Of a DNA stretch of 64,000 nucleotides, positions 7,255-62,930 are shown in pieces (within the stretch, counting starts at the first letter, position 1; each line of letters opens with the position of its first letter). The DNA comes from Thermoanaerobaculia bacterium (GTDB taxonomy: Bacteria; Acidobacteriota; Thermoanaerobaculia; Gp7-AA8), in contig JAXDGL010000008.1 in assembly GCA_034665065.1 (NCBI GenBank), forward strand, positions 319,412 to 383,411. The letters run 5' to 3'. The position numbers and the translations under genes were made by a program. Under the pieces are notes generated by a model. That model saw nothing but the letters and a program-made list of their open reading frames with translations, made no database searches and was not told where the DNA came from.

Positions 7255-7537
7255 TTGATTGCGCTTCGCGCGTTGTCGGTTGTCGGTTGGTTGCGCTTCG
7301 CGCGTTGTCGGTTGTCGGCGCTTCGCGCCTTTTCTAGAACGATCCTGCCCCGTCTTGGGCGGCGAGTATTCCAAGCATGAAGAGTTCGATCAGCTCCCGA
7401 ATTCGACACTGGCGCAGACAACGCGCGAAGCGCAATCAACCGACAACCGACAACGCGCGCAGCGCAATAAGACAACGCGCGAAGCGCAATCAACCGACAA
7501 CCGACAACGCGCGAAGCGCAACAAGCGCAGCGCAATA
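7255..7537. repeat. composite direct+inverted repeat of a ~36-bp GC-rich unit
   Basis: Unit TTGATTGCGCTTCGCGCGTTGTCGGTTGTCGG occurs twice in direct orientation (7255-7328) and twice as reverse complement (7419-7537). Can fold into a long hairpin with a ~90-nt loop. Confidence 0.8.
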
Positions 7538-8406: not shown

Positions 8407-8606
8407 AAAATGTTGAATGTTGAATGTTGAATGTTGAATGTTGAGTGTTGATCGTGCGCCGCCATCCTCCGTTCGTTCAACACTCAATACTCATCATTTA
8501 CAATTTAATGAATCCAACATTTAATATCCATCATTTAACATACAATATTAACATCCGCCATTTAACACTCAACATTTAACATTCAACATTCAACATTCAA
8601 ATGTTC
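8407..8606. repeat. AT-rich imperfect palindrome built from TTGAATG heptamer arrays
   Basis: 5x tandem TTGAATG (8409-8445) and its reverse complement CATTCAA x3 (8580-8606) flank a ~120-bp AT-rich core carrying repeated CATTTAACA-like motifs. Sharply lower GC than surrounding DNA. Confidence 0.8.
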
Positions 8607-10416: not shown

Positions 10417-10566
10417 CATTCCGAGCCCGGCGGCGCCCCGGAGGGGCAAAGTACGGCGAGGAATCCCCTGCCGTTCGCCTCTACCGCCGCCCGCCCTTCG
10501 TTTCAAGAAGGGGATTCCTCGCCGCGCTCCACCCCTCCGGGGTTTCGCCGGCTCGGAATGACAGCG
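10417..10566. repeat. MITE-like palindromic element, family A copy 1
   Basis: Termini CATTCCGAGCCCGGCG … CGCCGGCTCGGAATGACAGCG. Inner inverted pair GAGGAATCCCCT/AGGGGATTCCTC. Related copies at 13401-13460 and 28873-29082. Confidence 0.8.
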
Positions 10567-13282: not shown

Positions 13283-13298
13283 AGCCTCTCGGCGGTCA

Positions 13299-13386
13299 CC
13301 AGTGATCAGTGATCAGTGATCGGTGGTCAGAAAGTCAGGACGCTGGATAGCGATTCCTGATCTGGTCACTGATCACTGATCACTTG
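13299..13386. terminator. hairpin of inverted AGTGATC heptamer arrays
   Basis: AGTGATCAGTGATCAGTGATCGG … CTGGTCACTGATCACTGATCACT, immediately after the amidohydrolase 3 stop. Confidence 0.55.
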
Positions 13387-25556: not shown

Positions 25557-25748
25557 CCTGTCATCCTGAGCCGCCGATGTCCCGGCAGGGGCTGAGGACG
25601 GTCGAAGGACCCCTTCTTCGTGCCATGATTCTTTCCGCCGCCGCCCCTTCAACCAATTAGGGGGTCCTTCGACCGTCCTTCGCCGCCGGGCACGTACGGC
25701 GCGAGAGCAAAGAGTTGAGCGGGCGGCTTCGGCGGCTCAGGATGACAG
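25557..25748. repeat. MITE-like palindromic element, family B copy 1
   Basis: Termini CTGTCATCCTGAGC … GCTCAGGATGACAG. Inner arms GGTCGAAGGACCCC / GGGGGTCCTTCGACC. Second copy at 33621-33804. Confidence 0.8.
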
Positions 25749-27130: not shown

Positions 27131-27183
27131 GTCACGCGGAGACGCGGAGACGCGGAGGGAAGTGCTCCGCGTCTCCGCGTGAA
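27131..27183. terminator. family C perfect palindrome
   Basis: TCACGCGGAGACGCGGAGACGCGGAGggaagtgCTCCGCGTCTCCGCGTGA between convergent/divergent genes. Confidence 0.6.
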
Positions 27184-28828: not shown

Positions 28829-28872
28829 ACGTGAATCGTGAGACGCGAGCAACGCTGACTCCTCGCGCGTTT

Positions 28873-29082
28873 GTCATTCCGAAACGGCGAAACCGCGGGG
28901 GCGGACAGGGCGGTGGGAGCGGTGGAGCACGGAGAGGAATCCCCTGACGCTGGCCATGGCTTCGCTTCGTAGGCGGGGGATTTCTCATCGTGCTCCGCCG
29001 CTCACACCCGCCCTCCCACCCCCGCGGTTCCGCCGATTCGAAATGACAGCCGTGTTTGATCGGCCCTTTCGAAATGACAGGC
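28873..29082. repeat. MITE-like palindromic element, family A copy 3
   Basis: GTCATTCCGAAACGGCGAAACCGCGGGGG … CCCCCGCGGTTCCGCCGATTCGAAATGACAGC (+ second TTTCGAAATGACAGG tail). Inner GAGGAATCCCCT / GGGGGATTTCTC. Confidence 0.8.
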
Positions 29083-29115: not shown

Positions 29116-29862
29116 TCAGAACGTCGCCCACAGCAGTACGCGCTTGAACGTGTAGAAATACGGCCGGTGCTCACCGAGCTGTTTGACCAGTCGCTCGGTG
29201 TACTGAGCGAGAAACTCTTCGTAGCGTTCGTCTGCGAGCGCTTCGCGATACGGCGTCAATGTCGAGCCCTTCGTCCATTCGACGACATCACGCGTTGACG
29301 GCAGCACGTGGCCGTAGACCTGAAGCCGCACGTGTTGCCGCGCGAAACCGATGTGATGCAGCAGCGAGGCATAGCGCTCGGGTAGCAGCACGTTGACTGT
29401 GCGCGGCTCGATGCCGAACGACGCCGCGAGCTCGGCGGCGATGCGATGCGAAGGATGATCGTGATTCGCAGGCATCTGCACGGCGATCTGTCCATGCGGC
29501 GCGAGAAGAGCGGCGAGCCTTGTGAAGAGACGCACGTGATCGCCGATCCAGTGCAGCGCAGCGTTAGAGAAGACGAGATCGAATGGACGATCAGCGACGA
29601 AGCCCTCGATCTTGCCACGCTGGAAGTGCAGCACTTCGGAGTCGAACGAATTCGATTTCAATAGCATCGTCTCCGAGCTGTCGATCCCGATCGTCTCCTC
29701 GGCGGCGAGATTTTCGTGCAGCGCGCGCGTCAGCTCGCCCGTGCCGCAACCGAGGTCGACGACGCGCATGCGTGGCCGCCGCTCGATCAGCGCGACAAGA
29801 TCGTGAAACGGCAGCGCGCGCTCGTCTTTGAATCGTTCGTATTGCGTTGGATCCCAGCTCAC
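29116..29862 (-). CDS. tam: trans-aconitate 2-methyltransferase
   Basis: VSWDPTQYERFKDERALPFHDL…VVDLGCGTGELT (SAM-binding) …FDLVFSNAALHW. GTG start overlaps the upstream gene stop (GTGA). The remainder of ORF 29116..31026 is an Arg-rich artefact. Confidence 0.8.
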   Translation of the reverse strand: MSWDPTQYERFKDERALPFHDLVALIERRPRMRVVDLGCGTGELTRALHENLAAEETIGIDSSETMLLKSNSFDSEVLHFQRGKIEGFVADRPFDLVFSNAALHWIGDHVRLFTRLAALLAPHGQIAVQMPANHDHPSHRIAAELAASFGIEPRTVNVLLPERYASLLHHIGFARQHVRLQVYGHVLPSTRDVVEWTKGSTLTPYREALADERYEEFLAQYTERLVKQLGEHRPYFYTFKRVLLWATF

Positions 29863-32747
29863 CTCAAGTGATCCCAATTCATGATCGCGTTCGTGACCAG
29901 CGCGTAGCTGCCTTGCGTGTTCTGACGCCACATCGGATTGTTGGCGAAGAGGAGGATGTGGCCTTTGCCGCGCGGACAATCGATGACGAGCGGTTTGCCG
30001 GCGATCTCGTCCCCGCCTTCGAGCATGCCGGACATCAAGAGTTGGTCCGCTTGCTTCGCGAACGACACGATGACGCGCGGCCGATCCTCGGCGCGGATCT
30101 GTGCGTAGTCGGAGTTCCATGGCGCGTCTTCGGGCGTTTGAAATCCTTCCTCGCCTGGCGCCGGCTTCGGACGTTCCGGCATCGGCGTGAAGGTGCGGCC
30201 TTGCGCGATGTCGGGATCGTTCTTGCCGCCGCGCCCACTCGGACGTGACTCCGGTGGTGGCGCATTCTGACCGACCTGGAAAATTGGCGATCCGGCGTAG
30301 TAGACCGGCATCGTGTCGTCGTAGCCGGCGGCGATCGGACTCTTTTTGTCGGTGATCGATGCGAGAAGGATCGTGCCCGGCGCGCGCAGTTTCTGCGGCT
30401 CGATCACGCGGACCCATCGCGCCAGTCCGTACTGCACGGCCCAGACCGACGTGTCGCGCGCGGTGATCAGCAGGCCGCCCTCTTCGACGAAGCGCGTCAG
30501 GTGATCGACGCCGGAGAGGCCGAGGCCGGGACGCATGTCGTCGGTTTCGTCGATGCCGCCGAGGTTTGGCGTGATCTCGGTCTTGTGCCACGGAAGAGGA
30601 GGGCCGGGTGGAAGGCCGTTCACGATCTCTGCGGATGAGTTGGAACCGCCTGTCGGCGCGAAGAGGATGACGTCGAACTTCTCGCGGAGATTCGCCGCCT
30701 TCGCCACTTCCTGCGTCGAGATGTAGGTGAAGGGGATGCCCAGCGATTCGAGTCCGAGGCGGAACCATCCTTCGTCCTGCGTGCGAAGCCAGGTGTGAAG
30801 GATGGCGATGCGGGGAAGGTGGAGCTCGTGCGTCTTCGTTGCGGCGGCGGCCGCTGCGGTCGCGACGACCGAGCCCGCGGCGTACTTCCTTGTTCCCGAT
30901 GTGAATGCCTCGTCCGCGATGAGCCAGCGAGCCTTGGGTGCAGCCCAAACAGCGCGCGCAACGCTGGTGTCCGCGGCGTTTTCGAGAATCAGCGGCGATG
31001 AGCTCTCGGGCGTTGATCCGCTCCACGCATGCATCGGAACTTTGAGCACGTCGGGATTCGCGACGCGTTTGAAGTCGACGTTCTTGAGATAGCCGAGCGT
31101 CCAGCCGGTATCGTCGTACACCTTCTCGTCGCTGCGGACGTATTGAATATCGAGCATCGCGTCGGCGAGGCGCGAGTAGGGCTGATCCATGCGGACGATG
31201 AAGCTGCCCTTTGCGAAGGTGATTGGGGCGTTTGGATCGGGCTTGGGTGCACGTAGGTCGGACTCTCCAGTCCGACTCTTTTCCGGCGTCGCTTCAGAAG
31301 TCTGTCGGACTGGAGAGTCCGACCTACGTTCCGCGGAGGCTTCAGGTTTGGGCGCTGGCGGCGGCCAATTCGCAGCCACACTGAATGGCGCATCAGACTG
31401 CTGTACTTCGACTCCGTGCGTGCGTAGAAGATTCATCAGATCGGTGAGCTGACCTTGTCGTTTCTGCGCGCCGTCGAAGACCCATGCTGCGGGACCTTCG
31501 TTCGCCGCTTTGGCCATCGAGCGCTTGCCGAGCAGGTAGAACTGATCGAGGAAATGCTGACGTCGATCGGCGAAGTCGGAGAGCGCGAGCAGCAGTCCGC
31601 TCTGCTGATAGTTGATGTTGTTGCGCAGCGACCACTTCACGGTGCTGAGGGGCGGATTGGGTCGGAACCAGGCGCGGTCGCTCTGTCCGCGCACGACGCG
31701 GTCGGCCGTGATCGGAAAGCGATTGCCGAACGTCTCGTAGAAACGGCCGATGGCGTTGTGTCCCTGGCCGGCCCACATCATGTAGTTCGGGGCCCAGCCG
31801 TCATAGAAGCCGTACGTCCAGACGCCAGGCAGTCCGCGTTTGGTCAGCTCCTGCACTTCATGCCACGCCATGCGCTGCCACTCATCGATGACGAGCGGAT
31901 CGAGCGATGGGTTGTACGGACCGGTGCCCGTCGAGATGTAGAGAAACGGCACCGACTCGTGAAGATCGTGGATGACCTGCGGGTGGAACTCGAAGAACGT
32001 ATGCAGCACGTTGCGGCTGAGCGCGAGGGCGAGGCCGAGGTTGTCGCGATTGTTGTCGTGGGCAACGTAGTGGCCCCAGTAGACGAGTGGAGGAACGGGA
32101 CGATTCGGATTGGCGTCGCGCCAGCGGGCGAGATCGACCTGACGGTCGCGGCCATCGACTTCGACGACGGGCGTGATGAGGACGATGACGTTGTCGCGGA
32201 TCTTGCGAATCAGCGGCGAGTCTTCGACGGCGAGACGATACGCGAGCTCCATCAGCATCTCGGGGCTGCCAGTTTCCGGCGAGTGAATCGAGCCGGTCAT
32301 GTAGTAGATCGGCTTGCCGGTGGCGATGAGCTTCGATGCGTCGTCATCCGTCAGCGTGCGCGGATCGGCGAGTCGTTTGGTGACGTCACGATAGCGATCG
32401 AGATGCGCGATCGTCTCGTCGGAGGCGACAGCGACGGCGATCATCTCGCGTCCTTCTTCACTCTTGCCGATCGAGAACACTTTCACGCGCGGTGACGCCG
32501 ACTCGAGCGCGCGCATATAGCGGTTCACATCCTGCGAGTAGGTGAGGTGGCCGTCCGCTCCCGCGATGTAGCCGAAGAATTTCAACGGTGTCGGCACGCG
32601 CGACGAAGCCGGCAGGTGATCGACCATCTCGGTCGTGAACTGCGGTCCGGTCGTGAACTGCTTGATCTGCCGCGTGTAGTCGGCGTCGTTCTGTTGCTGC
32701 GCAACGGCCGTTGTGGCGAAGAGAATCGCGAGTGCGAAGCGTTTCAA
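29859..32747 (-). CDS. M14-family zinc carboxypeptidase-like large secreted protein
   Basis: 962 aa. Signal peptide. M14 core context (…YYMTGSIHSPETGSPEM…VYWGHYVAHDNNRDNLGL…HDLHESVPFLYISTG). Confidence 0.8.
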   Translation of the reverse strand: MKRFALAILFATTAVAQQQNDADYTRQIKQFTTGPQFTTEMVDHLPASSRVPTPLKFFGYIAGADGHLTYSQDVNRYMRALESASPRVKVFSIGKSEEGREMIAVAVASDETIAHLDRYRDVTKRLADPRTLTDDDASKLIATGKPIYYMTGSIHSPETGSPEMLMELAYRLAVEDSPLIRKIRDNVIVLITPVVEVDGRDRQVDLARWRDANPNRPVPPLVYWGHYVAHDNNRDNLGLALALSRNVLHTFFEFHPQVIHDLHESVPFLYISTGTGPYNPSLDPLVIDEWQRMAWHEVQELTKRGLPGVWTYGFYDGWAPNYMMWAGQGHNAIGRFYETFGNRFPITADRVVRGQSDRAWFRPNPPLSTVKWSLRNNINYQQSGLLLALSDFADRRQHFLDQFYLLGKRSMAKAANEGPAAWVFDGAQKRQGQLTDLMNLLRTHGVEVQQSDAPFSVAANWPPPAPKPEASAERRSDSPVRQTSEATPEKSRTGESDLRAPKPDPNAPITFAKGSFIVRMDQPYSRLADAMLDIQYVRSDEKVYDDTGWTLGYLKNVDFKRVANPDVLKVPMHAWSGSTPESSSPLILENAADTSVARAVWAAPKARWLIADEAFTSGTRKYAAGSVVATAAAAAATKTHELHLPRIAILHTWLRTQDEGWFRLGLESLGIPFTYISTQEVAKAANLREKFDVILFAPTGGSNSSAEIVNGLPPGPPLPWHKTEITPNLGGIDETDDMRPGLGLSGVDHLTRFVEEGGLLITARDTSVWAVQYGLARWVRVIEPQKLRAPGTILLASITDKKSPIAAGYDDTMPVYYAGSPIFQVGQNAPPPESRPSGRGGKNDPDIAQGRTFTPMPERPKPAPGEEGFQTPEDAPWNSDYAQIRAEDRPRVIVSFAKQADQLLMSGMLEGGDEIAGKPLVIDCPRGKGHILLFANNPMWRQNTQGSYALVTNAIMNWDHLR
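31251..31329. repeat. perfect intragenic palindrome inside the M14 peptidase CDS
   Basis: ACGTAGGTCGGACTCTCCAGTCCGAC …31-nt loop… GTCGGACTGGAGAGTCCGACCTACGT. Translated in-frame as …RRSDSPVRQTSEATPEKSRTGESDLRAP…. Confidence 0.75.
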
Positions 32748-33620: not shown

Positions 33621-33804
33621 CTGTCATCCTGAGTCGCCGAAGGACACGAAGTGCCGGAGGACGATCGAAGGACCCCCTGCTTCGCCGCGACGGTCTTGTT
33701 GCGTCGCGTTTAGAGCAATTGGGGGGTCCTTCGACCGACCTTCGCCGCGATGCCTGCCGGTGCATGAGCAGAGTGGAGGCGCGGCTCGGCTGCTCAGGAT
33801 GACA
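33621..33804. repeat. MITE-like palindromic element, family B copy 2
   Basis: CTGTCATCCTGAGTCGCCG…GATCGAAGGACCCCC…GGGGGGTCCTTCGACC…GCTCAGGATGACAG. Collinear with the copy at 25557-25748. Confidence 0.8.
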
Positions 33805-33869: not shown

Positions 33870-36002
33870 ATGTCCATTCACGCGCGTGTCGACGCGCTCC
33901 TCGGGCGGCTCGCTTCCACGCCGCAGTTTCCCACGCAGGGTCAGACGATTTTCGTCGACCTCGAGCGTCAGGAAGTGCGGCGCGCCTACATCCCCCTCCG
34001 CGTCGTCGAATCGCTCCTCGGCGGTCGCGGCGTGAACATGTACCTCCTCCACAACCTGCTCGATGAGACGCTCGATCCGATTCATCCTCACATTCCGCTG
34101 ATCTTCGGCACCGGCATCCTGACCTCGATGGTGCCGTCGGCGTCGCGCGGCAATGTGACGTCGTGGTCTCCTGAGTCGCGCGTCCTGATGGATTCGAACG
34201 CCGGCGATTACTTCCCGTCGTTCATGAAGCTCAATGCGATCGATCACCTCGTGCTCTACGGCAAAGCTGCGAAGTGGACGCTGCTTCATTTCGAGGGGAA
34301 CGAGCCGAAGTTCATCGACGCCGCGCCGTGGGTCGGTCTCGACAACATCGATCTTCGCGAACGGATCGCCGCAGATTTTCACGGGGTCGAAGGGAAGGAC
34401 TACGGACTCGCTGCGATCACGACCGCGGGCGAGAATCTCGTCCTCTGCTCCGGCATCATGGCCGGTCCGAAAGCCATCTACGCGCGCGGCGGTCCGGGCG
34501 CAAAGATGGGCGGACTGAATCTAAAAGCAGTTTTGATTCAGGGGCGTGCCGCCGATCTCACCACCGCGCGTCCGCACAAACTGCGCAATCGCGACGTCGC
34601 GCTCAAGCTCCTCTCGACATCCGTCGTCAAGAACGCGCTGAAGAAACGCGGTACGCCATTCCTCTACAAACCCTCGCGCATGCTCGGCGCGATGGGAACG
34701 AAGAACAACCAGGAGACGACGTGGACCGATAAGCTCGACGCCGAGAACATCGACCCGTACCGTCCCGGGATGGAGGGTTGCTTCGCCTGTCCGGTGAATT
34801 GCCGTCCGCTGAATGACATGAGTGGGGGTGGGGAGTGGGGAGTGGGGAGTGGGGAGTCTTCTGTGCGGGAGTCGGGAGTCGGGAGTCGGGAGTCGGAGAG
34901 AGAAACCTTCGTCCACTCAGTGCGTGAACAGAAAGCAGAACTAGAGAGCGGAGAGCGTGAGAATGTTGACGCGCTGCATTCCGCTCCGACCCTCGACTCC
35001 CGAAAACCGACTCCCGCGCCAGACAAATACATCAAAGGCGACGGCCCCGAGTACGTCACGCTCGGCAAGTTCGGACCGAACATCGGCATCAGCGAAGTCA
35101 CGCAGGTTCTTCGTCTCAACAACATCTGTAACGACCTCGGGCTCGATACCGCGTCCGCTGGATCTGCGATCGCATGGGCGATGGAGCTGTATCAGCGTGG
35201 CATCATCACAATCGAGCAGACGAAGCTCGATTTGACGTGGGGCAACTACGACGTGATCGAGCAGTTGTTGTTCATGATCGCGAAACGCGAGGGGATCGGT
35301 GACGCCATCGCTGATTCGTCGCAGGCCGTGGCCAACGGCAAGTATCCCGCTGAAGCGCTCGACTATCTGATGGCGGTGAAAGGACTGACACAGAGCGATC
35401 CTCACGACGCGCGCATTCTCAAGGCGTTCGCGCTCGGACTCGCCGTTGCCACGCGCGGGATGGATCATCTTCGCAACCGCGTCACGCTGGAGATCAACGC
35501 CAAAATCAACGACTCGCCGGATTTCAAAGCGGAGTTGTATGGCGGCGCCGTGTCCGCGGAGCCGAACAGCTACGAAGGCAAAGAGATCGCTGTCCGCCGC
35601 TGCGAGAACATCTACGCGGTCGGCGATTCGGTGGGCATGTGCCGATTCACGACGAAGCTCTTCAACTCGCCGTCGTTGCCGGGCTATCCGGAGTTCGTCG
35701 ATCAGGTGGCGAACGTCACCGGCATCGAGCTGACGAACGAACAGATCGACCACATCGGATTAAACGTCATGGGCGTCGAGCGTCTCATCAATCAGAAGAT
35801 CGGCGTGACGCGCGCGGATGACACGCTGCCGAAACGCTGGTTCGAAGAAGCAATCGGGGTCGGTCCGTACAAGGGCGAGAAAATCGATCGCGGCGAGTTC
35901 GACAAGATGCTCTCGCGCTTTTACGAGATCTCGAACCTGACCGCGGAAGGCCTGCCGAAGCCGGAATGGCGCGAAGAGCTCGAAGAGGTTCTGGCGTCAT
36001 GA
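33870..36002 (+). CDS. aor: aldehyde:ferredoxin oxidoreductase (tungsten/molybdopterin AOR family) with ~70-aa in-frame repeat-derived insertion
   Basis: AOR N-terminal domain. 4Fe-4S Cys motif GCFACPVNC. AOR-like C-terminal domain. 710 aa, versus ~600-aa AORs recalled from memory. Confidence 0.85.
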   Translation: MSIHARVDALLGRLASTPQFPTQGQTIFVDLERQEVRRAYIPLRVVESLLGGRGVNMYLLHNLLDETLDPIHPHIPLIFGTGILTSMVPSASRGNVTSWSPESRVLMDSNAGDYFPSFMKLNAIDHLVLYGKAAKWTLLHFEGNEPKFIDAAPWVGLDNIDLRERIAADFHGVEGKDYGLAAITTAGENLVLCSGIMAGPKAIYARGGPGAKMGGLNLKAVLIQGRAADLTTARPHKLRNRDVALKLLSTSVVKNALKKRGTPFLYKPSRMLGAMGTKNNQETTWTDKLDAENIDPYRPGMEGCFACPVNCRPLNDMSGGGEWGVGSGESSVRESGVGSRESERETFVHSVREQKAELESGERENVDALHSAPTLDSRKPTPAPDKYIKGDGPEYVTLGKFGPNIGISEVTQVLRLNNICNDLGLDTASAGSAIAWAMELYQRGIITIEQTKLDLTWGNYDVIEQLLFMIAKREGIGDAIADSSQAVANGKYPAEALDYLMAVKGLTQSDPHDARILKAFALGLAVATRGMDHLRNRVTLEINAKINDSPDFKAELYGGAVSAEPNSYEGKEIAVRRCENIYAVGDSVGMCRFTTKLFNSPSLPGYPEFVDQVANVTGIELTNEQIDHIGLNVMGVERLINQKIGVTRADDTLPKRWFEEAIGVGPYKGEKIDRGEFDKMLSRFYEISNLTAEGLPKPEWREELEEVLAS
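34822..35028. repeat. intragenic heptamer-array palindromic element (GGGGAGT / CGGGAGT arrays)
   Basis: GGGGAGT x4, CGGGAGT x3, then inverted CTCCGACCCTCGACTCCCGAAAACCGACTCCCGCG. Translated as MSGGGEWGVGSGESSVRESGVGSRESERETFVHSVREQKAELESGERENVDALHSAPTLDSRKPTPAP inside the AOR. Confidence 0.75.
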
Positions 36003-47721: not shown

Positions 47722-47862
47722 GGGGTGGGGAGTGGGGGTGAAGTTAGAAGGGTGAAGAGTGAAGAGTGAAGAGTGAAGGGTGAAGAGTGAAAGTAAGACA
47801 ACTAATCCCTCTTCACACTTCACACTTCACTCTTCACACTTCACCCCTACTCCTCACCCCCA
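47722..47862. repeat. heptamer-array palindrome (GGGGAGT / GTGAAGA arrays)
   Basis: GGGGTGGGGAGTGGGGGTGAAG…GTGAAGA x5 … inverted TCTTCAC x4 …CCCCTACTCCTCACCCCCAC. Lies between the precursor gene and the MNIO gene. Confidence 0.75.
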
Positions 47863-56750: not shown

Positions 56751-56835
56751 TCGAGTTGATTATGACGAGAAGGTTCCGACCTGCAAGGCGAGGCCGGTGA
56801 ATGGTTGGTTTCGGGTGATGAATGGTTGGATCTTG

Positions 56836-56998
56836 CGGTTGCGCGGTTGCGCGGTTGCGCGGTTGCGCGGTTGTGAGGTTACGGAGTTGCGAGGTTTCTG
56901 AGTAGATCCTTCGCAGCAACCCAGCAACCCAGCAACCCGGCACCTCAGCACCTCAGCAACCAACAACTCAGCAACCGCGCGAGACCGCAACCCACTGC
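56836..56998. repeat. imperfect palindrome of GGTTGCGC octamer arrays
   Basis: GGTTGCGC x4 + GGTTGTGAGG… then inverted CAGCAACC x3, CAGCACCT x2…. Confidence 0.7.
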
Positions 56999-57125: not shown

Positions 57126-57527
57126 TCTAAAACCCTCGCTCCCAAGTCGTCAGAACCCTAGTCTCCCTCGACGTCACCTGAGGCTCGGCGCTGCCTTCGC
57201 TGCGAGCGCTTAATCGCAAAATAACCTTCCGTTCGCCAAAACTTAATCCCCATGGTCCGCAAACGGCCTCACTATGACCGATGTGTGGTTGTGTGTCCAT
57301 TTTTATATAGTATTTTTGGAAACTAGTCCTTAAGTTCATTCTGATACTGCTGCCGTAATAACGCACGTATCTATATGAAAATAAAGGACTTGCACTTTTT
57401 AAACGAACTGCTACAGTGCCCTCCCCAAAGTCGACACGATCGGCTTAGGTCCAATCCAAATAACTCACGAAACCCCTGTAAAAGGTCATCGCGCCTGCAT
57501 CTGGCGCTACCCACAAAAGGAACCCGA

Positions 57528-60500
57528 ATGAAACGAGCTCTTCCCTTTCTTCTTTTGTCGCTTCTTCTCGTCGGATCGCTCGATGCCGCGCCAGGTCGCC
57601 GCCACAAGAAAGTGGCGCAGTCCGAGGTTACGGTGGAGGCGGAGGTGGAGGCAGGCAAGGCGCTTCGTGCCGCCGTTGGCGAGAGGGAGAGGAAGTCGAA
57701 TGAGGATACGGGTACCATCGTAGCCAAGCCGGTGCCGATTCCGTTTGGACCCCCGATTGAGCTGCAACTGAAGCGCGCTGACAGCCGCAAGTTCGATCTG
57801 CGCTCCCTCCCAAGGACGCAGCCGGTACAACAGGAGCGCGCGGAGCTTCCGGAGCCGGCGTTCCACCCTGTCACCGTCCAGGCGACTGGTGTTCCGCCGA
57901 CGGCCAATCTGCCCGCTGTGCCTCTTCCATCGGCTCCGGCGCCACCGCCGATCGCAGTCTACGAGGGGCTCGATCGTTTCAATTGGGGAGCCGGCAGTCC
58001 TCCCGATACGAATGGTGACGTCGGTCCGAACAACTACATTCAGACCGTCAACTCCTCGATTGGCGTGTACCGGAAGTCCGACGGCTTCCAGCAGGCGGCA
58101 TTCACGTTCAACACGTTCATGAGCCAGGGCAACTTCGGCAATCTGTGTGACACCAACAATTTCGGCGATCCGGTCGTCCTCTACGACACATTCGAAGACC
58201 GCTGGATCATCACGGACTTCGCGTTTGTGCTCGACGGCGGCGGCAATGTGGTCGCTCCTGCCTACCAATGTTTCGCTGCCTCGATGACTGGCGATCCGGT
58301 CGCCGGCGGGTGGAACTTCTACTCCATCCAGATCTCGGATGCTCTCAACGATTATCCGAAGTTGGGCATCTGGCCGGACGGTCTTTACATGTCCGCGAAC
58401 ATGTTCACCTTCGGCGCCGGCTCCGCGTTCACGAGCGCCCGCGCCTGGGCCTTCAACAAGGCGCAGATGTATGCCGGAAGCCCGACCGTGAAGGTGGTCT
58501 CCTTCAACATTCCCGGCGGCGATTTCACGGTCATCCCCAGCAACGCACGCTTGCAGACAGGCACGCCGCCACCCGGGCGTCCCAATCTGTTCACCTCCAG
58601 CTGGCTCTTTACGAACGCTCTGACCGTCTATCAGTTCCACGTTGACTGGAACAGCATTTCGCAGTCGACGTTCACGGGCCCGGATACACCCATTGCCGCT
58701 ACGAGCTGGCCGAACGCTGCCGTCGCGAACGCCGCGCAGCCGGGTACGGCTACGCTCCTCGATGTCCTTCAGATCCGCGCCATGGTGCAGAACCAGTACA
58801 CGAACTTCGGCGGCACCGAGTCGTTGTGGATCCCTCATACGGTTCGCCGAGGAAATACGAGTGGATTCGCTGCGCCGCGCTGGTACCAGGTGAACGTCAC
58901 CGGCGGCGCGGTCAACCCTGCTATCCCACAAGCGGCGACGTGGGATCCGGACAATGCCAACGTCGTCAATCGCTTCATGCCCAGTCTGGCGCTTGACCGG
59001 GCCGGGAACATGGCCATGGGCTACAGCACCTCGAGTGGGACGGTCTTTCCCTCGATCATGTATGCGGGCCGGCTGGCAGCCGATGCGGTCAATACCTTCA
59101 GCCAGACCGAGCAGACGTTCTTTACCGGCACCGCTTCACAAACAGGTACGACTCGATGGGGTGACTACAGCGCTATGACGCTCGACCCGGACGGTTGTAC
59201 GTTCTGGTACACGACCGAGTATGCAAATCCGGCGGACCAGACCTTTAATCATCGCTGGCTGACCAAGTTCGGCTCGATCGGAGCATTCCCCGGATGCACC
59301 CCGGTTGGAGCGGGTGGTACGGTTTCCGGTACGGTGACCGCCGCGGCCGGCGGCGCGCCAATCAGCGGCGTCACGGTGCAGTTGGGCGCGGGGCGTTCGA
59401 CGACCACTGACGGCTCGGGCAATTACTCGTTCACCAGCATTCCCGCGGGCACCTACCCGACGATAACCGCGAGCAAACCAGGATTCGTCTCAGGATCCGC
59501 GTCGTCGATCGTCGTCACTGACGCCGGCACCACGACGCAGAACTTTTCGCTGGCCGCTGCTGCGTCGAGCTCCTGCCTCACCGACACCACACAGTCCGAT
59601 TTCTTGACTGGCGTTACTTCCGCAACCGTCGACATCAACACATCTCCCGGCGACGTCACATTGTCCAATGCACCGACCTCTGACCAGGCGAACACCGCCG
59701 GCACGACAACCGGAACCGGCTTTGGCACCCCTGCCTGGACCGGTCAGACCTTCATCGCGGGAGTCAGCGGTCTACTCGTGAAAGCCGATGGCCAGCTCTT
59801 CTGCAACGGTTGCGGCGCGACACCTCCGGACCTCACGCTTTCCCTCCGCGCGACTTCGGCTGGTTTGCCGACAGGCGCTGATCTCGCCACCGCGACGGTC
59901 CTCGGTGCGCAGTTTGCCAGCGGTGCGTCCGTCCTCTTCACGGCGACCTTCGGCTCGCCGGTCTCGATCACTTCCGGAACGCAATACGCTCTGGTCCTGC
60001 GGCCGGTCTCCGCTCCGGCGGGCTCCGGCTATTTCTGGATTCGCTCTTCGCCGAGCACGTACACCAACGGTTCGCGTGTTCTGTCGGCCGACAGCGGCGG
60101 CACATGGTCCGCCGATACCACGCGCGATTACAACTTCAGAACGTACGTTCAGGTCGGCTATGCAGCAGCAGGCAACTTCGTGTCGTCTCCCAAGGATTCC
60201 AATCCGGGAGGCGGACTGACGCCGATCTGGTCGACGTTCTCATGGAACGGTTCCACTCCCGCGAATACATCGTTGCAGTTCCAGCTCGCCGGATCGAATA
60301 ACGTCAACGGACCGTTCAACTTCGTCGGACCGGACGGCACCGCGGGAACATTCTTCACGACCTCACCGGCGCAGCTCTCGCCCCAGTTCTACAACTTCCG
60401 GTTCCTCGAGTACAAGGCATTCCTTGCCACCACCGATCCCAACGTCACGCCCACGCTCAGCGACGCCACCACCTGCTTCAACGACGTCGATTGCAGCAGT

Positions 60501-62930
60501 ACGGCGGCTACGATCACGCCAACACCGGCAGCGGTCTGCACAAACTCGACCGGCAATACCGCCGCTGGTCCGGCTGGCATGATCTCTTACGCATGGGGCA
60601 TTGCCAACGGCACGATCACCTCCGCGACGAACATGCAGAGCATCACCTATACGGCCGGTGCGTCTGGTAGCGTCACGTTGAATCTCACCGTCACGGCAGC
60701 AAACGGATGCATCATCTCCGGCTCGACGCCGGTTACGATCAACCCTATACCGGCCACACCAACGATCACCGCGGGCGGGCCGACGGCATTCTGCAGCCCC
60801 GGCAGCGTCACGCTCACATCGAGCAGCGCTTCGGGTAACCAGTGGTACCTCAACGGAAACCCGATCGGCGGCGCCACGAACAACACCTATGTCGCCACCG
60901 CATCGGGTAACTACACGACCGTTGTCACAGCGCTCGGCTGCAGTAGCGCGGCCTCGAATTCCATCGCTGTGACCGTCAACCCGATCCCGGCCACGCCCAC
61001 GATCACTCCCGGAGGAGCGACGACGTTCTGCGCCGGCGGAAGCGTGACGCTGACGTCGAGCAGCGCAAGCGGCAATCAGTGGCTGCTCAACGGCAATCCG
61101 ATCGGCGGTGCCACGAACACGACGTACAACGCGACGGCCAGCGGCAACTACACGGTCACCGTGACGACGAGCGGCTGCACCAGCGCGCCATCATCGGCAA
61201 CGACCGTGACCGTGAACCCGATCCCGGCCACGCCCACGATCACTCCCGGAGGAGCGACGACGTTCTGCGCCGGCGGAAGCGTGACGCTGACGTCGAGCAG
61301 CGCAAGCGGCAATCAGTGGCGGCTCAACGGCAATCCGATCGGCGGTGCCACGAACACGACGTACAACGCGACGGCCAGCGGCAACTACACGGTCACCGTG
61401 ACGACGAGCGGCTGCACCAGCGCTCCGTCTTCGGTCACGACCGTGACGGTCAACCCGCTTCCGGCCACACCGACGATTACACCCGGAGGCCCGACGACGT
61501 TCTGCGCCGGTGGCAGCGTGACGCTGACCTCTAGTAGCGCGTCCGGCAATCAGTGGTATCTGAACGGCAACCCGATCGGCGGTGCCACGAATACAACGTA
61601 CTCCGCCACCGCCTCAGGCAGCTACAAGGTCGTCGTGACGGCAAGCGGATGCAGCAGCGCTCCATCGGCGGCCACGAATGTAACTGTCAATCCCAACCCC
61701 AACGCCACGATCACGGCGCCGGCCAGCGCGGCAACAGGGTCGACCGGCAACATCGCCTCCGTCGCCAACGCCGGAGTCGGCGCCACCTATAACTGGAGCA
61801 TCACCAACGGCACGATCACGGCGGGCACGGGCACCAACAGCATCACCTTCACTGCCGGCGCGGTGGGAACGTTGACGCTCAACGTCACCGTGACTACGAG
61901 CGCCGGTTGCAGCGACGCCAAATCGGCCAACGTCAACGTCGTCGTTCCACCCGTGACCGTAACCTCGGTGTCGCCGACCGGCGGCACGATCGCAGGCGGC
62001 TCGGCAGTGACGATCAACGGGACAGGCTTCGCCAGCGGTGCGAGTGTCACCTTCGGAGGAGCGACGGCGACGAATGTCGCTGTTGTCAGCGCCATCAAGA
62101 TCACGGCCAGGACTCCAGCCCACGCGCTTGGCGCCGTCAACGTGACGGTGACGAACGTCGATACGACGAGCGGCACGCTCGTCGCCGGCTATCTCTACAA
62201 GGCCCAGCAATTTGATCCGAACAACGACGGCACGATCACCTCGTCGGACATTTTCTATCTTGTGAACTACCTCTTCCTTGGCGGTCCCGCGCCGAGCGCT
62301 GCGGCGGGTGTGTTGTCAGGTGATGCGAACGGCGATGGAGTTGTCAACGCGTCCGATATTTTCTACCTCGTGAACTATCTCTTCCTCGGCGGCCCGCGGC
62401 CTAACGCGGTTCCGACTCTGACGCCTTCCGCTCTTTCGGCGGGCACGACGGAGACGGGCGCGATCGAGGGCTCGATCACGCTTGGCAAACCGTTGCAGCG
62501 CAACGGCCGCTACGTCGTCCCGGTCGTGATGTCGATCGTCCCGGGCTCGATCACCCCGCAGTCGATGGCGTTGCGCGTTCACTTCGACGGGGAAGGAAAC
62601 GTCGGTACTGTGTCCGTTCGTAAAGCAGGTGCGGCGAATGATCTTGCAGTGCCGTTTGAGATCGCGCGCAACGTGGACAACGATCTGTCTTACCTTGTTT
62701 CCTATGGCGGGCTGAATCTTGGACAAAGCCGTTCGGCGGTCGTCGCCGAAATCGAGATCGATTCGGTGGACGGAGCCGTAGGTCTCAGCATCGATCCGCA
62801 GTTGACAATGATCGGCGATCAAGCCGGCCAGGAATCGGCGACGGTTGCGAATGGAAAGCTTCAGGTCAAGGGCGCATCGATTGGCAAGACCCTCATGAAA
62901 CCGAATGCGCATGGAAACGAAGTGAATTAA
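57528..62930 (+). CDS. giant secreted multi-domain protein with Ig-like tandem repeats, a dockerin module and a C-terminal cohesin-like domain
   Basis: Signal peptide MKRALPFLLLSLLLVGSLDA. 5 near-identical ~80-aa repeats (PIPATPTITPGGATTFCAGGSVTLTSSSASGNQW.LNGNPIGGATNTTY.ATASGNYTVTVTTSGC). Dockerin duplicated segment DPNNDGTITSSDIFYLVNYLFLGG / DANGDGVVNASDIFYLVNYLFLGG. Confidence 0.8.
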   Translation: MKRALPFLLLSLLLVGSLDAAPGRRHKKVAQSEVTVEAEVEAGKALRAAVGERERKSNEDTGTIVAKPVPIPFGPPIELQLKRADSRKFDLRSLPRTQPVQQERAELPEPAFHPVTVQATGVPPTANLPAVPLPSAPAPPPIAVYEGLDRFNWGAGSPPDTNGDVGPNNYIQTVNSSIGVYRKSDGFQQAAFTFNTFMSQGNFGNLCDTNNFGDPVVLYDTFEDRWIITDFAFVLDGGGNVVAPAYQCFAASMTGDPVAGGWNFYSIQISDALNDYPKLGIWPDGLYMSANMFTFGAGSAFTSARAWAFNKAQMYAGSPTVKVVSFNIPGGDFTVIPSNARLQTGTPPPGRPNLFTSSWLFTNALTVYQFHVDWNSISQSTFTGPDTPIAATSWPNAAVANAAQPGTATLLDVLQIRAMVQNQYTNFGGTESLWIPHTVRRGNTSGFAAPRWYQVNVTGGAVNPAIPQAATWDPDNANVVNRFMPSLALDRAGNMAMGYSTSSGTVFPSIMYAGRLAADAVNTFSQTEQTFFTGTASQTGTTRWGDYSAMTLDPDGCTFWYTTEYANPADQTFNHRWLTKFGSIGAFPGCTPVGAGGTVSGTVTAAAGGAPISGVTVQLGAGRSTTTDGSGNYSFTSIPAGTYPTITASKPGFVSGSASSIVVTDAGTTTQNFSLAAAASSSCLTDTTQSDFLTGVTSATVDINTSPGDVTLSNAPTSDQANTAGTTTGTGFGTPAWTGQTFIAGVSGLLVKADGQLFCNGCGATPPDLTLSLRATSAGLPTGADLATATVLGAQFASGASVLFTATFGSPVSITSGTQYALVLRPVSAPAGSGYFWIRSSPSTYTNGSRVLSADSGGTWSADTTRDYNFRTYVQVGYAAAGNFVSSPKDSNPGGGLTPIWSTFSWNGSTPANTSLQFQLAGSNNVNGPFNFVGPDGTAGTFFTTSPAQLSPQFYNFRFLEYKAFLATTDPNVTPTLSDATTCFNDVDCSSTAATITPTPAAVCTNSTGNTAAGPAGMISYAWGIANGTITSATNMQSITYTAGASGSVTLNLTVTAANGCIISGSTPVTINPIPATPTITAGGPTAFCSPGSVTLTSSSASGNQWYLNGNPIGGATNNTYVATASGNYTTVVTALGCSSAASNSIAVTVNPIPATPTITPGGATTFCAGGSVTLTSSSASGNQWLLNGNPIGGATNTTYNATASGNYTVTVTTSGCTSAPSSATTVTVNPIPATPTITPGGATTFCAGGSVTLTSSSASGNQWRLNGNPIGGATNTTYNATASGNYTVTVTTSGCTSAPSSVTTVTVNPLPATPTITPGGPTTFCAGGSVTLTSSSASGNQWYLNGNPIGGATNTTYSATASGSYKVVVTASGCSSAPSAATNVTVNPNPNATITAPASAATGSTGNIASVANAGVGATYNWSITNGTITAGTGTNSITFTAGAVGTLTLNVTVTTSAGCSDAKSANVNVVVPPVTVTSVSPTGGTIAGGSAVTINGTGFASGASVTFGGATATNVAVVSAIKITARTPAHALGAVNVTVTNVDTTSGTLVAGYLYKAQQFDPNNDGTITSSDIFYLVNYLFLGGPAPSAAAGVLSGDANGDGVVNASDIFYLVNYLFLGGPRPNAVPTLTPSALSAGTTETGAIEGSITLGKPLQRNGRYVVPVVMSIVPGSITPQSMALRVHFDGEGNVGTVSVRKAGAANDLAVPFEIARNVDNDLSYLVSYGGLNLGQSRSAVVAEIEIDSVDGAVGLSIDPQLTMIGDQAGQESATVANGKLQVKGASIGKTLMKPNAHGNEVN

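Follow-up and report, generated by a model that had tools for sequence, protein, structure and literature searches.

A perfect palindrome lying in frame within a peptidase gene of a Thermoanaerobaculia bacterium (Acidobacteriota; GenBank assembly GCA_034665065.1, contig JAXDGL010000008.1) is, with a probability that we put at about 85%, an intragenic REPIN: a head-to-head dimer of a GTAG-type repetitive extragenic palindromic (REP) unit, with the GTAG termini on the outside, whose family is dispersed through the Thermoanaerobaculia clade. REP dimers inside genes are already known, and the present one represents a further family, apparently the first described in Acidobacteriota. It lies in a 64,000-nucleotide (nt) stretch of the contig, here called the window, on which an earlier note, made from the letters of the sequence, had taken the palindrome for a recently inserted mobile hairpin or a functional RNA or DNA structure. 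In window coordinates, its parts and its host gene are the following:

29859..32747, minus strand: host gene, encoding a secreted M14 zinc carboxypeptidase-family protein of 962 amino acids (aa) (Pfam PF00246 Peptidase_M14, E = 7.9e-15)
31251..31276, plus strand: REP unit 1, with ACGTAG head, stem GTCGGACT, tetraloop CTCC and stem AGTCCGAC; identical to the 151-copy consensus
31251..31276, coding strand minus: peptide of REP unit 1, SRTGESDLR
31277..31303, no strand: spacer of the doublet, 27 nt; its minus strand encodes about QTSEATPEK
31304..31329, minus strand: REP unit 2, the unit 1 sequence on the opposite strand; it comes first on the coding strand and encodes RRSDSPVR

The two arms are 26 nt each, 100% complementary and separated by a 27-nt gap. 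The plus strand reads ACGTAGGTCGGACTCTCCAGTCCGAC at 31251-31276 and GTCGGACTGGAGAGTCCGACCTACGT, the exact reverse complement, at 31304-31329, and both arms stand in frame within the minus-strand open reading frame (ORF) 29859..32747. The whole doublet measures about 79-81 nt and contributes about 27 codons to the host protein, translated as ...AERRSDSPVRQTSEATPEKSRTGESDLRA... at residues about E473-R499. In all of this (perfect 26-bp arms, position in frame inside an M14 gene, translation) the earlier note had read the sequence correctly, as it had in finding such a hairpin unexpected. Folded as single-stranded DNA the palindrome reaches -35.2 kcal/mol (z = -7.35), a stability matched by 0 of 200 shuffled sequences, and the RNA of the coding strand reaches -61.6 kcal/mol (z = -8.46), so that the structure is far beyond chance. 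Nor is it an assembly artefact, because eight independent assemblies, the window included, share it at the same site. Each arm is itself a small hairpin, in which ACGTAG is followed by GTCGGACT-CTCC-AGTCCGAC, an 8-bp stem with a tetraloop.

This small hairpin is the repeated unit of a family. The family consensus, (A/T)ACGTAG-GTCGGACT-CTCC-AGTCCGAC, is 26-27 nt long and both window arms equal it, T31330 extending the match of unit 2 to the 27-nt form that begins (A/T)ACGTAG. Across 151 aligned copies, conservation is at least 90% over 26 positions and ends at both unit boundaries, the flanks being unconserved. A search for the palindrome elsewhere, as the earlier note had suggested, located its 20-nt core in at least 108 stretches of 12 related metagenome-assembled genomes (MAGs), all Thermoanaerobaculia, in a scan that covered one genome per species; at least 18 separate 8-kb blocks with the core come from the 5.9-Mb genome OY970380.1. 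The fetched loci (numbered below with the prefix L) contain 138 elements when up to four mismatches are allowed, 95 of them doublets and 43 single units. Paired units are arranged with GTAG outside ("+-") in 33 cases against 1 with GTAG inside ("-+"), and doublet spacers range from 9 to 108 nt across the family. Of 149 partner arms, 112 show 0-1 mismatch, and behind these comes a thin tail of arms that have decayed; ascertainment of the loci by exact core match makes the arms look somewhat more homogeneous than they are.

The existence of the family decides against an origin within the gene itself. A palindrome could have arisen there de novo, for example through a template-switch inverted duplication of a linker segment unrelated to mobile DNA, and four palindrome-less linkers among the orthologs described below (L006, L117, L118 and L007) are homologous to arm 1 plus spacer, which alone could suggest an ancestral linker that was later inverted and duplicated. 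The arm is nonetheless identical to a unit with a GTAG head and conserved boundaries that 12 genomes carry at those 108 or more other places, the unit flanks transposase genes, and change at the locus runs from REP consensus to decayed linker, with L021 and L118 keeping partial REP stems. We rejected the template-switch origin on the strength of the multi-copy family and regard it as extremely improbable.

The transposase in question is the one expected of a REP system. In ORF L020:648-1142 we found a score of 101.9 bits against NCBIfam NF047646 REP_Tyr_transpos (REP-associated tyrosine transposase, or RAYT; cutoff 80) together with a match to Pfam Y1_Tnp; phmmer with an E. coli RayT-like seed served only as the lead, and its single match was verified independently by Pfam and NCBIfam. 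Family doublets lie on both sides of this gene, with three in tandem downstream, and the MAG that contains it, BP_51, also carries a doublet-bearing M14 gene (L080). A second RAYT, in L116, is 77% identical, comes from an unrelated metagenome and is flanked on both sides by the unit in a CTCT loop variant, at 1718, 1846, 2463 and 2603. Database relatives of these RAYTs are named RayT by their sources. A separate observation concerns the layout of L020:440-1510 (JAXDGW010000076.1), where three blocks of about 120 nt, each containing a doublet, follow one another in tandem downstream of the RAYT and look like a local REPIN array beside the transposase.

Assignment to the GTAG-type REP/REPIN class draws on a short palindromic unit with a terminal GTAG; on many dispersed copies in related MAGs, the window holding one doublet in 64 kb; on an inverted pair with variable spacer, conserved arms and the potential to form a long hairpin; and on a cognate RAYT flanked by REP units in related genomes (L020, L116). 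An extragenic location, typical of REPINs though not obligatory, is lacking in this copy, which sits within the M14 coding frame. Occurrence of GTAG REPs inside genes has been described: most are dimers that encode 20-30 aa, and genes for replication and repair, including DnaE, are prominent among the hosts (Di Nocera et al. 2013, BMC Genomics 14:522, PMC3733652). The same survey reports stems of 5-13 bp, loops of 2-20 nt and dimer spacers of 20-100 bp, and lists GTAG repeats for Proteobacteria, Cyanobacteria, Chloroflexi and the PVC group, not Acidobacteriota (PMC3733652). Like those repeats, ours are stem-loops with a terminal GTAG, their 8-bp stem and 4-nt loop falling within the reported ranges; GTAG-outside dimers predominate, repeats flank RAYT genes, and some copies lie in ORFs. 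The unit sequence and the phylum differ, and the material here goes beyond that survey in offering a cross-species ortholog series of one intragenic copy, with arm conservation, spacer drift and stepwise decay.

The resemblance to REPIN-RAYT systems (Bertels & Rainey 2011, PMC3116915; bioRxiv 10.1101/2021.07.10.451892) is equally broad and takes in the inverted REPs, the variable spacer between conserved flanks, the long hairpin, the REP-flanked RAYT and long vertical persistence. REPINs have been described as having a variable spacer and conserved REP flanks, and as residing "almost exclusively in extragenic space" (bioRxiv 10.1101/2021.07.10.451892). In contrast, the present copy lies inside a coding frame, as do an estimated 12-30% of the family members sampled, and at about 79-81 nt the doublet is smaller than REPINs of typically about 100 bp. 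No paper on REPs in Thermoanaerobaculia was found in the literature, though databases already annotate RayT in these MAGs.

Other classes of small palindromic DNA fitted less well. Rickettsia palindromic elements (RPEs), as far as they are summarised in PMC3733652, are likewise small palindromic repeats set in frame in functional genes, where they add a short peptide, typically in permissive loops; according to the same summary they carry a CGTC tag and have no transposase gene, whereas the present family has a GTAG tag and a RAYT and belongs to another lineage with another unit. An RPE-type element was ruled out by the GTAG tag and the associated RAYT. A miniature inverted-repeat transposable element was ruled out as well, the flanks of six orthologs having no direct repeat and the unit flanking a Y1/HUH RAYT rather than a DDE transposase. 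No target-site duplication was visible at the M14 site when the flanks of the six orthologs were read directly; enzymes of the IS200/IS605 type are expected to leave none. With 0 terminator-like sites on either strand of 30800-31800 and no T run after either arm, an intrinsic terminator or attenuator could be dismissed, and a promoter and terminator scan at the locus found nothing. A known structured RNA was rejected too, as Rfam over 30800-31800 returned only generic miRNA-precursor models at no more than 44 bits against gathering scores of at least 80.

The host protein places the doublet where added length is common. Its 962-aa ORF has thousands of homologs, of which we aligned 40 orthologs, all from Acidobacteriota and mostly labelled Thermoanaerobaculia. 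The doublet sits in a loop of hypervariable length bounded by NWPP (residues 460-463) and FAKGSFI, a segment that ranges from 0 to about 90 residues in the alignment. An AlphaFold2 model of moderate quality (mean pLDDT, the per-residue confidence score, 65) predicts residues 467-502, which contain the insert at 473-499, as coil with a pLDDT around 30 between strands 455-457 and 509-511. By direct reading, the REP unit is stop-free in five of its six frames, the sole stop being the TAG of GTAG. The peptide that the palindrome encodes is present only in the closest relatives among the 40.

In those relatives the arms are frozen and their surroundings are not. Counting the window, the intact doublet is present in eight assemblies, at 85-95% nucleotide identity. 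Among the window, L001-L005 and L085 the arms match nucleotide for nucleotide except for single changes in L003 and L085, and the spacer and flanks differ freely. Tabulated over six genes with pairwise identities of 85-94%, the variable sites are:

arms: 1 of 52
spacer: 13 of 27
remainder of the gene: 24.6%
third codon positions throughout the gene: 57%
third codon positions in the arms: 1 of 18

Conservation of this degree has a binomial P of 7.7e-6 and is equalled by just 5 of 2495 same-shaped segments of the gene. Variation of the spacer among the six orthologs is close to the neutral rate. Because third codon positions vary at 1 of 18 in the arms against 57% gene-wide, what is constrained is the nucleotide sequence of the arms rather than the peptide. 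Synonymous divergence that destroys the palindrome, the pattern that the earlier note had set against its own reading, was looked for in the orthologs and was absent.

Near-invariant arms within the most variable segment of the protein are also what might be seen if the hairpin were a functional RNA or DNA structure particular to this gene, co-opted by it, for instance, to pause translation between domains, to serve RNase III cleavage or mRNA stability, or to act as an attenuator, and kept by local selection. The RNA hairpin is certainly very stable at -61.6 kcal/mol, and RNase III could in principle cleave a perfect 26-bp RNA duplex. Selection on structure alone would, however, permit compensatory changes, and the arms instead equal a family consensus drawn from unrelated contexts. 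There is no U-tail or terminator and no Rfam family at the hairpin, and the close orthologs L006, L117, L118 and L007 have lost one or both arms yet keep an intact gene. In L021 one unit is perfect and the other decayed, and therefore the constrained entity is the 26-nt REP rather than the long hairpin. We consider a gene-specific structure unlikely, and the pause, attenuation or recombination site envisaged by the earlier note gained no support.

Where the doublet is incomplete, the remnants form a series. In L021, an M14 ortholog with about 83% nucleotide identity, the second unit is perfect (26/26, encoding GRTGESDLR) and the first departs from consensus at 9 of 29 positions and is still clearly homologous (0 of 2000 shuffles score as well). 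The linker of L007 is significantly similar to the REPIN (1 of 2000 shuffles), L118 retains the stem piece GGTCGGACTC, and the allele common to L006 and L117 has lost arm 2 by deletion and has a heavily changed arm 1. Compared directly, the L006 linker has no significant similarity to the REPIN, its homology coming from the multiple alignment with L117, L118, L007 and L021. More distant orthologs have only WPPSAKKDKTDF at the site, plausibly the state before insertion. Because the intact doublet is common to M14 genes up to about 14% apart and remnants occur in orthologs about 17% diverged, the insertion is old rather than recent, and predates a clade of about 17% nucleotide divergence. The mobile hairpin of the earlier note has stood the comparison in kind, as a multi-copy GTAG-tagged REP unit with a RAYT in related genomes, and its recency has not: in the ortholog check that the note proposed for the 27 codons, the intact copies in the closest relatives and the decayed remnants in deeper or interleaved ones both speak against a recent insertion.

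Several points weigh against interpreting the palindrome as a RAYT-mobilised REPIN. The window contains neither a RAYT gene, none having been found within its 64 kb, nor a second copy of the unit, even at up to four mismatches, beyond the one doublet; the association with RAYT therefore rests on related MAGs. On the gene-body tree the intact alleles are interleaved with the decayed ones; the palindrome-less L006 is 95.2% identical to the intact L085 and just 91.3% identical to L117, with which it shares its linker allele; the interleaving was read from pairwise identities, and the gene-body trees were built by neighbor joining. At the distance between L006 and L085, an arm-region divergence of about 43% is more than point mutation suffices to explain, and the interleaving implies recombination, an old polymorphism, or intact arms that are reset to a master sequence. 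The intragenic fraction is bracketed at 12-30% of sampled copies, from loci ascertained by exact core match. A family-wide constraint is presumed, and the M14 copy may have a local RNA or DNA function of its own. Transposition would be indicated only indirectly, by the many insertion sites and by the lack of a target-site duplication at the M14 site, and the insertion boundaries and pre-insertion sequence can be reconstructed only approximately.

The interleaving also bears on how the arms stay identical. One possibility is that concerted evolution maintains them in place of selection, by gene conversion from other copies or by RAYT-mediated re-templating; this is a variant of the REPIN interpretation and differs from it in the mechanism of maintenance. 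Units tend to be all or nothing, with 0-1 mismatch or heavy decay and few intermediates, L021 combines one arm at 26/26 with another that differs at 9/29, and the mixing of intact and decayed alleles on the gene tree is of a piece with both. On the other hand, 26 nt offers little length for homologous gene conversion, tracts of conversion reaching into spacer or flanks are not visible, and ascertainment by exact match makes the copies look more homogeneous than they are. We hold concerted evolution to be conceivable and rather doubtful.

These data support a model in which the REPIN entered the gene as mobile DNA and has since been kept as a member of its family. In this model, a HUH/Y1-type RAYT (IS200/IS605-like) would recognise the single-stranded REP stem-loop together with its GTAG, and mobilisation of the doublet by such an enzyme would mean that an ancestral RAYT copied it into the M14 gene. 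The insertion would have survived thanks to a disordered, length-tolerant surface loop, a frame-keeping length of about 27 codons and a unit that is free of stops in five of six frames. Spacer and flanks have since drifted at about the neutral rate, with the two REP units held at the family consensus. Maintenance of the arms would likely come from a constraint shared by the whole family, whether a need to stay recognisable to RAYT or homogenisation with the pool of REPs in the genome, rather than from any role peculiar to the peptidase. Wherever this constraint lapsed (arm 1 of L021, L007, L118, and L006 and L117), the unit would have decayed or been deleted, leaving an ordinary linker rich in Pro, Ala, Ser, Glu and Lys. 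A bolder proposal, which we offer only tentatively, is that this REP family is unusually at home in genes, its units being actively held at the master sequence in coding DNA across species-level divergence; selection or homogenisation at the level of the element would then dictate about 18 host codons, and intact and long-decayed alleles would coexist or recombine among close relatives.

Copies inside other genes give a measure of how often the family occupies coding sequence. Of the 138 family elements, 42 sit in frames that run for at least 200 aa without a stop and extend 40 aa or more to either side of the element; these host frames fall into 29 clusters. A strict coding test based on GC content at third codon positions (GC3) passes 16 of the 138, a figure to be taken as a lower bound only, as the test fails the confirmed case in the window. 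Pfam supports 13 of the 20 host frames tested, representing 12 distinct genes, so that in-frame copies are present in at least 12 genuine genes besides the M14 gene; the remaining 7 stop-free frames have no Pfam match and may be spurious. The supported hosts are listed here, first those whose domains span or flank the element:

DNA polymerase III alpha (DnaE), L054:2-1615 and L082:3013-6873: element between the HHH_6 and OB domains
IMS (Y-family polymerase) domain, L028:1-1758: element inside the domain
ArsA: element in the linker between the two halves
GT4 glycosyltransferase: domains span or flank the element
TMEM260-like domain: domains span or flank the element
DUF4147/MOFRL protein: domains span or flank the element
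Other Pfam-supported hosts: SNF2 helicase; ABC ATPase; radical-SAM protein; TPR/CycH protein

In some of the SNF2, ABC, radical-SAM and TPR/CycH hosts the element is N-terminal to every domain, and elements so placed (L019, L081, L088) could belong to the 5' untranslated region if the true start lies downstream. The same peptides recur from host to host, xRRSDSPVR or NVGRTLQSD from one unit and SRTGESDLR, VGLESPTYV or SDWRVRPT from the other. The elements in L054, L082 and L028, which are single REP units or doublets, echo the published bias of intragenic REPs toward replication and repair genes.

Other repeats occur in the window. A second in-frame hairpin, of a different class, lies at 34820-35017 in the neighbouring aldehyde:ferredoxin oxidoreductase (AOR) gene (33870..36002, plus strand). 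Heptamers in tandem (GAGTGGG/GGGAGTC, about 10 copies) make up one of its arms, the complementary heptamers make up the other, and the hairpin encodes ...GGGEWGVGSGESSVRESGVGSRESERETF...APTLDSRKPTPAP. It is present with differing loop lengths in the L001, L002 and L006 orthologs and absent from L003 and L004, and its arms appear to co-vary, both being of the GTGGGGA type in L001 and of the GTCGGGA type in L006 and the window. Long intergenic hairpins at 8409-8600, 13295-13384, 27132-27182, 47722-47861, 56835-56992 and 7255-7525 have arms built from tandem 7-8-nt units (in one case a 32-nt unit), mirrored by complementary units on the opposite arm. Their units are locus-specific (AATGTTG, CAGTGAT, ACGCGGAG, GAAGAGT, GCGGTTGC), so that they share an architecture and no common sequence; they have no GTAG tag and fall outside the REP family, and we know of no described class that they fit. 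In other genomes, around 5380 in L008 and at 3945-4541 in L017, REP copies are directly preceded by heptamer-like G-rich repeats (gggggtggggagtggggtggggg; ggaagacgggtgaagacg), which hints at a physical association of the REP family with tandem-unit hairpins.

Two further families of small inverted repeats are each represented twice in the window, at 25590-25684 and 33655-33744 and at 10427-10551 and 28872-29048; one has the motif GGACG(G/A)TCGAAGGACCCC...GGGGTCCTTCGACCG, and the other consists of longer imperfect palindromes that share GAGGAATCCCCT. A 237-nt tandem repeat at 60739-61666 (3.9 copies, 83% identity) lies in an 1851-aa ORF (57375..62930, plus strand) and presumably encodes repeated domains of a large protein. 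Between AOR and ThiS, L002, L003 and L004 have one or two small TIR_2-domain genes that L001 and L006 do not; these are a variable defence-like insert in otherwise conserved synteny.

An odd perfect palindrome in a peptidase gene can thus be explained as ordinary mobile DNA, and a special regulatory story is unneeded. The finding extends GTAG-REP/RAYT systems to the Thermoanaerobaculia of the Acidobacteriota, and it illustrates how nucleotide-level constraint on a repeat overrides codon drift in the gene that contains it. For annotation, RRSDSPVR, SRTGESDLR, NVGRTLQSD, VGLESPTYV and similar peptides that recur among unrelated proteins of this clade mark REP insertions rather than protein motifs. 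The ortholog set, with its intact, half-decayed and decayed or deleted alleles, offers a clean example of a selfish hairpin turning into an ordinary protein linker, and if the proposed history is true and maintenance depends on RAYT, the M14 locus series would be a natural experiment on the preservation and loss of REPINs.

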